Of a stretch of DNA of 64,000 nucleotides, positions 1 through 30,511 are shown piece by piece. The first letter of the stretch is position 1; every line of letters starts with the position of its first letter. Source of the DNA: a virus. The DNA lies in the IMG/VR virus record IMGVR_UViG_3300031853_000023, positions 7,254-71,253 of that record; one strand, given 5' to 3'. Both the position numbers and the translations under genes were made by a program. The notes under the pieces were generated by a model. The model had not been told where the DNA came from. It did not search any database and saw nothing but the letters and a program-made list of their open reading frames with translations.

Positions 1-11
1 TATATCTTTTA

Positions 12-40
12 GCTGCTTGGAGCGTCCTCAACCGCTTCCA
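12..40 (+). repeat. Conserved element GCTGCTTGGAGCG-N4-CAACCG..CTTC, copy 1; it is followed by a weak hairpin and a T-run
   Basis: The 13-mer GCTGCTTGGAGCG at 12..24 is identical to 60314..60326. A downstream CAACCG..CTTC stretch is also shared. Copy 1 lies upstream of the first gene of the recoded late operon. Confidence 0.5.
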
Positions 41-179
41 AAAACGCAAAAAGGCTTTGGATTTTTTATTTTTGAAATTTTGTATATAAGTATATTGGGC
101 AAAAGTAGAAAGATAATATATCTCTTTTTTTATTATATATAGTAATGAAAGCATATATTTTCTAAAGGAGGTTTTATTT

Positions 180-27100: not shown

Positions 27101-30100
27101 TATTGCTATAAGCGCGGTTGCAGCTATGGCTATCCATCCTAATCCACCTGCAGCATTACCAAAACTTGCAATTAATGAACCAATTCTTTTTAATAAAGCT
27201 CCTATATTTTTAAATAATTCTATTGTATTAGCTTTTAGCCCAGCAGTATTAGCCCATAACTATGCTGTAACAATTTTTTGTATAGCTGCGTGTAAAGATT
27301 CTGTTTTTGTTAAAGTTTTTAAAGCAGTACTCATACTAACTATTCCTGAAACAACCATAGGAATAGACATTGTTAAATTTCTTAATGTTTGAGAAAATTT
27401 TTCTCCAAAACTAAGAGTATCATCATTCATAATTTGAAAAACATTTAAAAAATTTTCAAATCCCATTTGAACTTGGCCTAAGGCAGAAACTAATTGAATT
27501 GCAGATTGAATTGCTTTTTGTCTATCTGCATCATTTTGAACATCTTTAATAGCGCCTCTATTATTATTACCAATAGTTCTTGAATATTTTAGCTCATCTA
27601 TTGCTTTCTGTCCTTTATTTTGTACCTCTGCATTTATACTATCAACAGTTCCTTGGGTAGTATCTAAAAGAGCTTGTTGTTTTTCTTCTAATGCTTTTTT
27701 TTCTTTTTTTAATGCGTCTATTTGTTCTTGGCTTAATTTAGACGATGATTGAATTTCTTCGTTATATTTTATTATTTCTTGAGAAAGTTTCTAATATTCT
27801 TTTTTTATGTTTATTACCTATGTTTTTAATTCTGGAGGGATTGCCATAGAAGAAAAATCTTGAGATAAAAATTGTAAATTATTTTGAAATTTATCAACAT
27901 TTTGTATTTGTAAATTACCTTTTAATGCTTGAAAATTTTGTTGATAAGTGTTTGTCGTCTGTTGTCGTCGTAACAATTCTTGATTTGCAGCTTTTTGTTT
28001 GTTGCTCGCCTACTATATTGCCTTTTTTGCATTTTGCTCTATTTTTGCAAATCTATCTTGAACTGCTTTTTTAAAATTCTCTGCACTTTTTGAGTCATCA
28101 GGCATTTGGTCAAAAATTTCTTTATAAATTGAATTTTTTAATAATTCTTTTATTTTTTCAATTTTTCCTTTTCTACCTTCAATATCTTGTATTTCTTCAA
28201 AACCTTTTACTTTTTCAATAGCTGATATTTGGTCGGATGTTGGGCCTCCTTTTCTTCGGTTTTGCATAATATTAAACATGCCTTTTAAAGGAGAATCGTT
28301 TATTATATGTTTCTTATTATCAGACAACTCTGGTAAAGAATCAAGTTTTTGTTGTTCTTGTGATATTACTTGTGCTTGAGCAGATTCATATTTTCGTAAA
28401 TTTTTTACATTGAATTGTTTAAACTGTGACTCATTTTTTTCTGATACTATCTTTGTTGCAGTCTAAGAATATGCTTCTATTAATTTCTATTGTGCTGCTT
28501 CTTGTTGCTTATTAATTTCATCTTGATCTCTTGCATATTGTTCTATTTTTTTGCTTAATTCATCATATTGCCCACCGACATCAATTATAGCATTTTCTAA
28601 ATCTTCTATGGATAAAGTTTCTTTCAAATCAACAGCATTATTTCCTAATGTTGTTGTAATTGATCGTGTGATATCTGAATACTAATTTAATTCAGTTTTT
28701 GCTTTATCAGCTGCGCCTGCTGCTTCTAATGAACCAGACCAACGTTTATTAATTTCATCCATCTGCTACGTTGAAAATGTTCCTGGAGCAGCTTGTAAAA
28801 ATTCTGATTCTTGTTTAAAAACTTGATATCTCTGACTTCCCTATTGTCCTTCTCTCTATAAATCTTTCATTTCTTTCTAAGCTAACGCTTGAGAACTTCT
28901 TTGATCTCTCAGCTGCCTTTTTTCTAATTGAGAGTTCATAATCATAGTATTAATTCCACTTGCAACGGTTTTTGAAGTAAGTGACATTACTATTGGGACA
29001 AGAGATTGTAATAAATTTTTTCCTCCTCCAATAGACTGGAATAATTTATCAACTTTTTCAACAATTGTTGTTAATCCATCTATTACATCTTTAAATCCAT
29101 CTGTATCAACTAATCCCATCCACATATGTTCAGTTGCAGTTGTTAATTGTTGAACATGAGTAGATAGTCTATCCATATAAATATCTTGTTGTTCCTATAA
29201 CTTTCCCCCTGCATTTTGAGCAGTTTTTAAAGCACTTTCATATTTATCAAAATTATCAAACAATGCCATTAAATTAGAGTATTGTCTTTGACCAGCCATT
29301 GTTTGTGCTAAATAAATTTTTTGTTCTTGAGTCATAGTAGACCATTTATTGCCAATCTCTTCCATGACTTCGCCCATATTACGAAGGTTACCATTTAAAT
29401 CAAGAACATTAATACCAATTTTTGCCATATCTCCTGAGTATTTTCCAAGAGTAACTCCATCTTCATCTAACCCTGCTTTAATATCAGTAATTCTTGCGTA
29501 TACTGTTCTTAATGCAGTACCGACTGTTTCTGGAGCTTGTCGAGTAACAGATATAATAGTTGATAATTGCGCAGCAAGCTGATCTTCTCCAACCCCTAAC
29601 GTTGCGGCAGCTGAAGCAACCTTACTCATACCTGTTGATAATTCTTGTAAATTAGATGCAGTTGTAGATGCAACTGCTGCTAATCTATCTACATACAATT
29701 CTGCCTATGCTGCACTAACTTTATAACCATTCCAAACGGCAGTTAATTCCTCTGAAACTTCTTCGGCAGATTGTCCTGTAACATTTGCTGTTTTTAATGT
29801 AATTGCAGTTCTTTCTTCAATTTCTTTCTGCCCTAAGCCCTGTTGAGCATAAATTAATGCAGCTCTTGTATAATCATTCGTGCCCTTCCCAAGATTACTT
29901 GCTACTGCATTAGCTCTTTCTGCAAATCTTGCCATTTCATCAGCAGATTTTCCTGTTACTATTCTAATGTCATTTAAAGCACTATCTAAATTTTTAGCAA
30001 ATCCATACGCCTAAGAAATTGAACGAGTAACTCCTTGCATTATAGAAGAAGATATTGTCCATTTTATAGTATTTGCCAAAGTGGTTCCTAATGCATCTAA

Positions 30101-30511
30101 TAATTTATGACTTTGTTTTAATTCAGTATTAAATTTTGTAAGTTCATGAGTTTGAGCTGCCCATACAGCTCTTCCTTCTGCAGTTTTTTGCATTTCTTTT
30201 CTAAATAATTTTACATTTAATCCACTTTGTTCTAATGCTGTATTAAATTTAGTAATATTATAACTATTAGTTTTTGGATTATAAGCTAATCTCATTAATC
30301 GCTAAAATTCAGCAGCATCTTTTTTTAATCTTGTTAAGTCATTAGCTTGTTTCTCTGCTATTGCAGGATTATTTAAGGAAATACCTTGTTGATTTGCATA
30401 ATTAACAACAGATAATTTTTGCAACTATTCTAATTGTTTTTTTAATTTTTTTAATTCCGCATCATTAACCTCAAAGTTAATACCATACGAAATTTTTCTT
30501 TTTTGTTCTGC
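21152..30511 (-). CDS. Tail tape measure protein, TP901-family core; about 3119 codons as a single TAG-recoded ORF
   Basis: Thirteen minus-strand track ORFs (21203 to 30295) all share frame (end = 1 mod 3). The gaps I inspected contain only CTA (TAG). The TMP core motif is present in fragment 29195..29698 (LGVGEDQLAAQLSTIISVTRQAPETVGTALRTVYARI..). Long coiled coils. Stop TAA at plus 21152..21154. Confidence 0.6.

Follow-up and report, generated by a model that had tools for sequence, protein, structure and literature searches.

What does the codon TAG specify in the virus represented by IMG/VR record IMGVR_UViG_3300031853_000023? The stretch that raises this question comprises 64,000 nucleotides (positions 7,254 to 71,253 of the record, referred to throughout as the window) and is 64 kb of a tailed phage of ~140 kb from a gut or rumen community. 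In total, ~195 in-frame TAG codons are spread over 23 of its genes. We find that TAG is a sense codon in this phage, a conclusion that we regard as virtually certain, with TAA and TGA serving as terminators, TAG used in late genes and early genes avoiding it. Comparisons with related sequences indicate, moreover, that UAG is probably decoded predominantly as glutamate (Glu, E) rather than glutamine (Gln, Q).

TAG as a sense codon

The decisive evidence that TAG is translated comes from stop counts in individual frames, because the summed length of open reading frames (ORFs) also rises, to a similar degree, when TAA is treated as sense, and is thus a poor discriminator of codes at the window's G+C content of 29.5%. 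On the minus strand, positions 21146-30595 form an open frame of 3150 codons with 69 in-frame TAG codons, no TGA, and a sole TAA that is the terminal stop. The remaining two frames of the same stretch contain 195 and 395 TAA and TGA codons, and at the off-frame stop rates (6-12% per codon) a frame this open would arise by chance with a probability of less than e^-190. Three plus-strand frames likewise have TAA or TGA only at their ends, namely 659-3775 (14 TAG), 3781-8481 (28 TAG) and 9131-11503 (6 TAG), with 38-202 TAA and TGA codons in each of their off-frames.

An earlier note on this DNA, made from the letters alone, had reported long frames interrupted by TAG only, and these four frames bear that out. 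Its thirteen minus-strand fragments sharing one frame are recovered at agreeing coordinates, as 13 standard-code ORFs of at least 60 amino acids between 21203 and 30295, and the plus-strand fragments at 3952-8121 and 9167-11503 fall within the open stretches 3781-8481 and 9131-11503. The twelve interruptions implied by thirteen fragments, however, fall well short of the true 69, and the tape-measure gene, rightly described as one read-through gene, is 3142 codons long from its first ATG and not 3119.

When TAG is read as sense, the longest ORF grows from 834 to 3150 codons, and the window resolves into 53 genes that cover 91% of its length. Retranslation, which had been suggested as a check, therefore succeeds as a measure of coding density, although summed ORF length does not discriminate between the codes. 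The 53 genes terminate with TAA in 42 cases and TGA in 11, in agreement with the claim that no gene ends in TAG. This absence arises by construction for the TAG-containing genes and is informative for the 30 TAG-free genes, every one of which ends in TAA or TGA.

Conserved domains also run across TAG positions. The PF10145 match of the tape-measure protein (residues 225-428) contains one TAG, the GH25 domain of an endolysin aligns over its entire length (1-180 of 180) with four TAG inside, and a GIY-YIG domain crosses one. A fourth domain had been claimed to do the same, but the Pfam LAGLIDADG_3 match (residues 171-229) holds no TAG; three TAG codons lie instead between the two LAGLIDADG motifs of that protein. 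The genes for the last three domains had, moreover, been placed within positions 1-30511, when in fact they are found at 36925-38514 (GH25), 48707-49597 (GIY-YIG) and 55822-56643 (LAGLIDADG). Because these genes sit beyond 30511, TAG use is not limited to the first part of the window. Nor does it extend throughout the virion modules of that part, as had been stated, since 11977-13991, 14979-15476 and 16444-17880 are TAG-free.

If the fragments were instead the decayed pseudogenes of a defective prophage, or products of assembly errors, TAG could still be an ordinary stop codon. Beyond the bare existence of in-frame stops nothing further speaks for this explanation, and we consider it to have a negligible chance of being correct. 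The frame statistics already refute it: the frame 21146-30595 is broken by 69 TAG and by no TAA or TGA where 195-395 would be expected, and a single frame is maintained over all interruptions. Domains are whole across TAG, and independent assemblies from many samples show a common pattern that includes identical TAG positions. For example, an ENA contig (L047; related and tRNA-bearing loci are given L numbers here) is 100% identical over 16444-30574, and its depositor's gene caller produced a single tape-measure product of 3122 amino acids. The resemblance to the stop-codon recoding of gut phages that the earlier note recognized is thus sound, as related contigs have the same pattern and public gene callers read through TAG.

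Probable glutamate at constrained TAG positions

The most informative gene for the identity of the inserted residue is g12 (14596-14910, plus strand), a 104-codon gene whose product resembles zincin (HExxH) metallopeptidases. TAG occupies residues 58, 74 and 76, and the window motif reads C-H-TAG-L-T-H, which places the first TAG at the catalytic Glu of HExxH. The predicted fold of a g12 homologue (predicted local distance difference test, pLDDT, 95) carries HExxH on the active-site helix, and its best structural matches are the HExxH zincins PprI/IrrE, selecase, jannalysin, abylysin, ArdC, CapP and SprT. Weak peptidase matches in Pfam and PHROG agree with this identity, and the g12 product is therefore a putative peptidase of the zincin type.

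We examined the best 120 of 707 database homologues of g12, all full length and from source pipelines that wrote TAG as Q. Five columns alternate between the two residues, with E/Q counts of 56/64 at column 58, 78/39 at column 74 (plus three singleton other residues), 74/46 at column 76, 86/34 at column 77 and 104/16 at column 89. By comparison, column 75, a true Gln position, is Q in 120 of 120. At the DNA level, the five acidic columns of five distinct lineages contain TAG 11 times, GAA or GAG 14 times, and CAA or CAG not once, so that in all five lineages checked every 'Q' in these columns is a TAG. The Gln column, and genuine Q elsewhere in these genes, is encoded exclusively by CAA or CAG.

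These data bear directly on the possibility that the phage uses ordinary code 15, in which TAG would be Gln, delivered by an amber suppressor derived from tRNA-Gln, and the alignments with Glu would reflect conservative replacements between E and Q. We consider this unlikely. It needs the HExxH Glu and four more acidic columns to flip repeatedly to Gln alone, with every such 'Gln' encoded by TAG (11 of 11) and the invariant Gln column never encoded by it. If TAG were an ordinary Gln codon, accounting for 28% of the Gln codons of these genes, the chance of the 11 of 11 would be ~1e-6.

A second strongly constrained site is residue 126 of g40, an HNH-type homing endonuclease gene. The window has TAG where at least 90% of 22 homologues, including JGI and NCBI calls made in the standard code, have an invariant Glu, and the lone 'Q' belongs to the nearest relative, which is 95% identical. 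At such sites, exemplified by the HExxH Glu and g40 residue 126, TAG thus replaces Glu codons and not Gln codons. The residue aligned at TAG positions, whose inspection the earlier note had suggested, is not the Gln usually assigned in recoded phages.

Other sites point in the same direction. Glu is found in all or most partners at the single TAG of an AAA_24 ATPase gene (3 of 3), at five sites of the ORF at 42251-42946, and at the single TAG of the gene at 14006-14596. In the g1 family, sporadic 'Q' is confined to conserved-E columns, and wherever a recoded locus has partner data, the consensus residue most often facing TAG is E.

Codon exchange between relatives

Within the clade, where contexts are well aligned and frames are real, TAG is paired with TAG 190 times, GAA 73, GAG 9, CAA 11, CAG 4 and GAT 8. 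Close relatives therefore yield 82 pairs of TAG with GAA or GAG and 15 with CAA or CAG. This distribution disfavors TAG as a Gln codon, because CAG would then be a synonymous transition partner and should dominate, which it does not. The expectation in the earlier note that the residue would be Gln, as it is most often, consequently does not fit this phage.

A similar answer is obtained from 26 TAG sites of the window that have partners in the standard code, where the partners are E in 37%, K in 13% and Q in 9%. The log-likelihood for Glu exceeds that for Gln by 9.7 at these sites, with 3.9% of bootstraps at or below zero. Applied at matched sample size to the control codons GAA, GAG, CAA, CAG, AAA, GAT and AAT, the same procedure returned the correct residue in no fewer than 99% of resamples. 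Both Gln codons, CAA and CAG, returned Q in 100% of resamples, whereas TAG returned E, a result that is difficult to accommodate if TAG were equivalent to them.

Some other potential tests are uninformative. Solved GH25 structures were set aside because the sole conserved TAG column reads Q/E/Q/E in homologues. The DGEQH motif of a homing endonuclease was likewise rejected as evidence for Glu, being a conserved Glu in three distant relatives and variable in closer homologues. Finally, amino acid composition compared between TAG-containing and TAG-free genes does not decide the residue.

Candidate suppressor tRNAs

If UAG is read as Glu, a tRNA with the anticodon CUA and the identity of tRNA-Glu would be expected. 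In relatives anchored by g1, the gene order is tRNA array, DUF2828 gene, g1 and g2, so that the corresponding array would lie just upstream of the window's left end. To the right of Pol III alpha, no tRNAs were found in relatives within 10-16 kb. The closest relatives with an array (L077 and L078, g1 88% identical) carry tRNAs for Ser, Ser, Glu(UUC), Lys, Arg, His and Cys. A more distant relative with in-frame TAG (L079, a 141-kb contig with g1 62% identical) has an array of 18 tRNAs upstream of DUF2828 and g1, and the first tRNA of this array is a tRNA(CUA). It has G1, a 4-nt variable loop and discriminator A, and the one GenBank phage sequence that matches it over its full length is an annotated tRNA-Glu. 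In the ARAGORN drawing (200-274), position 33 is C, where U is near-universal, and pairs 1-72 and 2-71 are both G-U.

A pattern built from the D-arm and anticodon loop of the L079 tRNA(CUA) was found in 8 IMG/VR and 17 GTDB contigs. One of these, L106 (IMG/VR, 117.9 kb), is a TAG-recoded contig with a tRNA(CUA), and the sample that it comes from also yielded contigs identical to the window. Its 21 tRNAs are followed by DUF2828 and then by a g2-like frame that spans at least 819 codons and has 22 TAG. The tRNA(CUA) is thus present in the TAG-recoded family members L079 and L106, as well as in the family contigs L098 and L099.

To classify these tRNAs, we scored them in bits with small covariance models made from the family's own Glu and Gln tRNAs. 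True Glu tRNAs have Glu minus Gln scores of +3 to +28, and true Gln tRNAs -39 to -61. The CUA tRNAs of L079 (Glu 61.4, Gln 60.3, difference +1.1), L106 (49.6, 42.9, +6.7) and L099 (56.8, 40.1, +16.7) lie with or near the Glu tRNAs. On the same scores, those of L023 (35.5, 69.4, -33.9) and L042 (30.4, 58.0, -27.6) are Gln-type. Overall tRNA identity to the nearest neighbor was also tried for the isotype call and proved too flat. The tRNA evidence is consistent with Glu and does not settle charging, and both suppressor types exist in the family.

Taken with the codon comparisons, these tRNAs suggest that a clade within a widespread family of gut and rumen phages of ~135-195 kb probably reassigned UAG to Glu by means of an amber suppressor derived from tRNA-Glu, its sister lineages having a Gln-type amber suppressor, an opal suppressor or the standard code. 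Under such a mechanism, the window's own genome would encode a Glu-like tRNA(CUA) outside the 64 kb, which the glutamyl-tRNA synthetase (GluRS) of the host would charge with Glu. This enzyme could plausibly be a GluRS of the non-discriminating kind; such enzymes accept the anticodons UUC and UUG alike and for that reason might tolerate a change at position 36. The charged suppressor would have to escape transamidation to Gln by GatCAB, an enzyme that recognizes U1-A72 and D-loop features of tRNA-Gln, and would then compete with release factor 1 for UAG, inserting Glu.

Suppressor loci of various types occur elsewhere. Gln-type tRNA(CUA), a 97-nt long-arm tRNA(CUA) and tRNA(UCA) are found in the family among the loci L023 20662-20737, L042 21160-21235, L046 20504-20600, L024 3649-3724 and L087 2021-2094, which also include one unrelated pattern match, a tRNA(UUA) with a transfer-messenger RNA. 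In Lachnoclostridium phytofermentans (L101, NZ_JPOF01000002.1, 4658-4870) and in L105, a tRNA(CUA) is identical to the adjacent tRNA-Glu(CUC) save for C36A. On this comparison, the L101 tRNA is a one-step, Glu-derived amber suppressor. In addition, a GC-rich stretch of ~300 nt that is not coding-like lies directly upstream of tRNA-Asp and tRNA(CUA) in L081 (181-480, equivalent to L106 ~10180-10480). This stretch may be a structured RNA, and ribozymes beside phage suppressor tRNAs have been described (PMC10879173).

Evidence for glutamine or for mixed decoding

Several observations weigh against Glu. In other recoded phages, Gln at TAG has been predicted or validated (PMC9523058, PMC10607447, bioRxiv 10.1101/2021.08.26.457843). 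Approximately seven distinct TAG sites pair with CAA or CAG, including residue 143 of the endolysin, where a 91%-identical relative has a Gln codon, and this rate is above that at which ordinary GAA codons pair with Gln codons. TAG sites are also less conserved than ordinary Glu sites (E partners 37% versus 51%). The search for a tRNA(CUA), as the earlier note had advised, succeeded in TAG-recoded relatives but not in the 64-kb window, where no tRNA or other RNA was detected with ARAGORN or with Rfam at the gathering threshold and at E up to 1. Similarly, no tRNA(CUA) was found in the 10 kb upstream of g1 in L077 and L078. Moreover, the Glu covariance model is the weaker one, with 10 base pairs versus 20 in the Gln model, and the CUA tRNA of L098 is intermediate, with a slightly higher score on the Gln model (Glu 54.5, Gln 61.9, difference -7.4). 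In both L098 and L099, the first pair of the CUA tRNA is U1-A72, a feature of tRNA-Gln. The D-arm motif GGTTARGAC had to be abandoned as a Glu-specific marker, as it is also present in a tRNA-Gln of L098, and most of the CUA tRNAs were recovered with a D-arm motif that is common to this tRNA-Gln.

Some of these points would be expected if TAG were Gln in accordance with code 15, as would the Gln-type tRNA(CUA) of the distant members L023 and L042. In addition, L024 has TAG at the Gln of its DGEQH motif, which suggests that TAG is Gln in the L024 lineage. The pairs of TAG with CAA or CAG in the clade of the window can be attributed, however, to the easy transition from CAG to TAG, which would create Gln-to-Glu replacements, although partial decoding as Gln would also fit them.

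Partial decoding of this kind could arise if a Glu-charged suppressor were transamidated in part by GatCAB, or if two suppressors were at work, such that UAG yields a mixture of Glu and Gln. The excess of TAG pairings with Gln codons over those of ordinary Glu codons and the lower conservation of TAG sites are both compatible with this idea. So are the mixed features of the L098 and L099 tRNAs, which combine a Glu-like 4-nt variable loop with the Gln-like U1-A72, and the presence of two different, adjacent CUA tRNAs in both L084 and L088. Nevertheless, the occurrence of TAG at two Glu positions, one catalytic and the other near-invariant, argues for efficient delivery of Glu, nothing in the sequence data requires a mixture, and the CAG-to-TAG transition bias is a simpler explanation for the Gln pairings. 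We therefore consider ambiguous decoding very unlikely and favor decoding predominantly as Glu.

Distribution of TAG among gene classes

Gene-by-gene counts combined with Pfam annotation reveal enrichment of TAG in late genes and its avoidance in early ones. The 23 TAG-containing genes encode tail proteins, the tape measure, the endolysin, homing endonucleases and a few DNA enzymes, whereas the 30 TAG-free genes, which include every core replication gene, encode gyrase, ligase, DnaB, Pol III alpha and the RNA-repair proteins, among others. TAG use thus tracks gene class across the whole window: late, lysis and mobile-element genes use the codon, and early and replication genes avoid it. If a suppressor tRNA is required, TAG-free early genes would be translatable in a naive host, and TAG-rich late and lysis genes would have to wait for the suppressor to build up. 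A role in the timing of late expression has been proposed for recoded phages (Borges et al., bioRxiv 10.1101/2021.08.26.457843).

The left part of the window is mostly devoted to virion genes. On the plus strand, g1 (180-653, 157 codons, 3 TAG), which in relatives is the first gene after the tRNA array and the DUF2828 gene, is followed by the tail-fibre-like g2 (683-3775, 1030 codons, 14 TAG), whose product is 34% identical to a TAG-rich frame of L106. Next are g3, a tail or baseplate gene (3952-8481, 1509 codons) with 27 TAG, or 28 when counted stop to stop from 3781; a gene of 170 codons (8641-9153, 5 TAG); g5 (9167-11503, 778 codons, 5 TAG); and a gene of 102 codons (11521-11829, 3 TAG). 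Four TAG-free genes of this virion module (11977-13991, plus strand; 166, 76, 258 and 153 codons) are 87-95% identical in relatives. They precede the 196-codon gene at 14006-14596 (plus strand), whose single TAG corresponds to GAG in 10 close relatives and to Glu in 2 distant ones. Beyond g12 are another TAG-free gene of the module (14979-15476) and a gene for a RuvC-like resolvase (15552-16040, plus strand, 4 TAG).

The genes of the adjoining region are on the minus strand. They comprise a TAG-free gene of 478 codons (16444-17880), for whose 478-residue protein no relatives were found in IMG/VR and metagenomes; a virion gene of 953 codons (17899-20760, 19 TAG) that is 100% identical in L047; a gene of 89 codons (20777-21046, 1 TAG); and the tape-measure gene itself (21146-30574, 3142 codons, 69 TAG), which carries PF10145 and has no internal TAA or TGA.

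The genes described next, further to the right, are on the plus strand. A TAG-free gene of 831 codons (30758-33253) encodes a protein with a major-vault-protein shoulder domain that serves as a marker for the family. It is followed by three consecutive TAG-free genes (33904-36634) for an RNA ligase (PHA02142 OB fold and RNA_ligase), a P-loop kinase (AAA_33/KTI12) and a calcineurin-like phosphoesterase. The trio resembles a module for repairing RNA or tRNA, carried by a phage that relies on tRNAs of its own. The endolysin gene (36925-38514) combines GH25 and CHAP domains, its 4 TAG codons lying within GH25, and is followed by a gene of 263 codons with 3 TAG (38580-39371). In the latter gene one TAG is located 2 codons ahead of the stop, and in the gene at 8641-9153 one is located 3 codons ahead of the TAA stop, the ends reading '...VA-TAG-E-stop' and '...YK-TAG-ED-stop', respectively. 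These TAG codons may be former terminators that are now read through to the next stop.

A replication block of TAG-free genes, including one for RNase H, extends over 39751-48187, with gyrB at 40332-42053, gyrA at 43461-45800 and an NAD-dependent ligase gene at 46124-48187, all TAG-free. An endonuclease-like ORF with 5 TAG (42251-42946) is inserted between gyrB and gyrA. Further genes encode the GIY-YIG homing endonuclease (48707-49597, 12 TAG), the HNH-type g40 product with its near-invariant Glu at residue 126 (49979-50671, 5 TAG), the AAA_24 ATPase whose single TAG aligns with Glu in all three standard-code relatives (52764-53825), a TAG-free DnaB-like helicase (54447-55859), the LAGLIDADG homing endonuclease (55822-56643, 7 TAG) and a RecJ-like DHH exonuclease (58479-60293, 2 TAG). 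There are thus four ORFs of the homing-endonuclease type (42251-42946, GIY-YIG, HNH-type and LAGLIDADG) amid TAG-free replication genes. They are among the most TAG-dense genes of the window, with a maximum of 12 TAG in 296 codons, and because of this density the mobile elements appear to be adapted to the recoded state.

The right end is occupied by TAG-free genes, one for an SF1 helicase and one for the N-terminal portion of Pol III alpha (60430-63220). Pol III alpha is apparently split (61883-64000): the N-terminal part ends with TAA at 63220, and after a gap of 420 bp a new frame runs from 63639 to the window end, whereas the homologue in the relative L060 is one frame of 1357 codons. The split is possibly due to an intron or other insertion, and Rfam identified no intron.

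The phage family and its relatives

The window belongs to a phage family whose hallmarks are a vault-protein-like gene, gyrase and Pol III alpha. The vault-like protein, encoded by a divergent neighbor of the tape-measure gene, matches PF11978 at 2.7e-20 and has a Vault_3 repeat. Searches with this protein recovered 46 IMG/VR loci at 53-98% identity on contigs of up to 194 kb, and among GenBank phages only LR756500, LR756501 and LR756503, which are huge phages of 462-735 kb, at ~38% identity. The dozen or so loci nearest by this marker (L001-L012 and L035, ~66-98% identity) have TAG-only interruptions and frames of up to 3075 codons, whereas most other vault-marker loci use the standard code within the fetched region. 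The TAG-sense pattern is also evident in the relatives L048-L057 and L069-L075.

Megablast and blastn searches with the window DNA identified no close relative among GenBank phages, and no exact DNA match that could extend the window was found in JGI metagenomes. Two GTDB contigs of 139.6 and 142.5 kb (L098, CAZWLD010000002.1, and L099, JBGUZU010000044.1) are members of this phage family. They were binned in rumen and gut metagenome-assembled genomes, GTDB species representatives that are labelled Anaeroplasmatales and Endomicrobiaceae. This placement is probably a binning artefact, and is at best a weak hint of the host. Of the clades described by Borges et al., the family may match one of the large ones associated with Firmicutes.

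One described phage that might have been the source or a near relative is phAss-1 (proposed Phassvirus, OQ749652; PMC10607447), which was present in the searched collection and gave no tblastn or megablast match. It shares with the window a gut origin, a genome of similar size (~136 kb), Pol III alpha and a tape measure of 3149-3209 amino acids. In phAss-1, TAG also occurs within 41 ORFs, virion genes among them, the tRNA set is large and contains tRNA-Sup-CTA, and the host is predicted to belong to the Clostridia (PMC10607447). Nevertheless, phAss-1 is not a close relative: tblastn with two proteins of the window, the vault-like one and a conserved one from the virion, gives no match in its record, and the tape-measure region has no megablast match. 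The authors of that study inferred Gln from a TerL alignment and tRNAscan-SE (PMC10607447).

Comparison with known codes and implications

The phenomenon is the known stop-codon recoding of gut phages, and it is probably the assigned amino acid that differs. Like the code-15 gut phages (crAss-like, Lak, Garnet/Amethyst and others; Borges et al.), the phage of the window has TAG in structural, lysis and mobile genes, terminates with TAA and TGA, keeps its early and replication genes largely TAG-free, yields fragmented coding sequences in the standard code, and has tRNA(CUA) in genomes of its family. In contrast, TAG is assigned to Gln in those phages, whereas here it is located where homologues have Glu, its exchange partners are mainly GAA and GAG, and the tRNA(CUA) of TAG-recoded relatives scores as Glu-type. 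The family is also a separate lineage, of ~135-195 kb, with gyrase, Pol III alpha and the vault-like protein. Gln at TAG has been validated by proteomics for two crAss-like phages (PMC9523058), and phage TAG is treated as Gln in the Borges preprint, Peters 2022, Babkin 2023 and Cook 2024, the last of which notes that the TAG of Lak phages was first left unassigned. No report assigning phage TAG to Glu was found in the literature searched, the coverage of which was incomplete.

To our knowledge, UAG is otherwise Glu only in two eukaryotic nuclear codes. These are NCBI tables 30 and 31, used by peritrich ciliates and Blastocrithidia, in which UAA is reassigned as well; the present example instead concerns a bacterial virus that retains UAA and UGA as stops and recodes part of its genome. 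Amber suppressors derived from tRNA-Glu offer another parallel, having a tRNA-Glu body with a CUA anticodon, as seen in L101. Such suppressors made in the laboratory in E. coli are largely mischarged with Gln by glutaminyl-tRNA synthetase (GlnRS). A phage version would therefore need a host in which Glu is retained, for example one without GlnRS and transamidation, and hosts that lack GlnRS should suit a Glu-type amber suppressor best.

Annotation tools hard-wire table 15, and public proteins derived from ENA and Logan (P0001-P0360; loci L048-L075) have been translated with TAG as Gln, giving, for example, 'CHQLTH' for the HExxH motif. If the assignment to Glu is correct, pipelines that read TAG as Gln mistranslate thousands of deposited proteins (e.g. 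HQxxH for HExxH), and public protein sets would carry a systematic Q-for-E error at 1-2% of residues, catalytic ones included. The genetic codes of prokaryotic viruses would then gain a member, a stop-to-Glu code in a bacterial virus, and the amino acid chosen in phage recoding would not be fixed. Recoding would have arisen, or switched residue, more than once in one phage family, which would thereby offer a natural system for studying how code changes become established.

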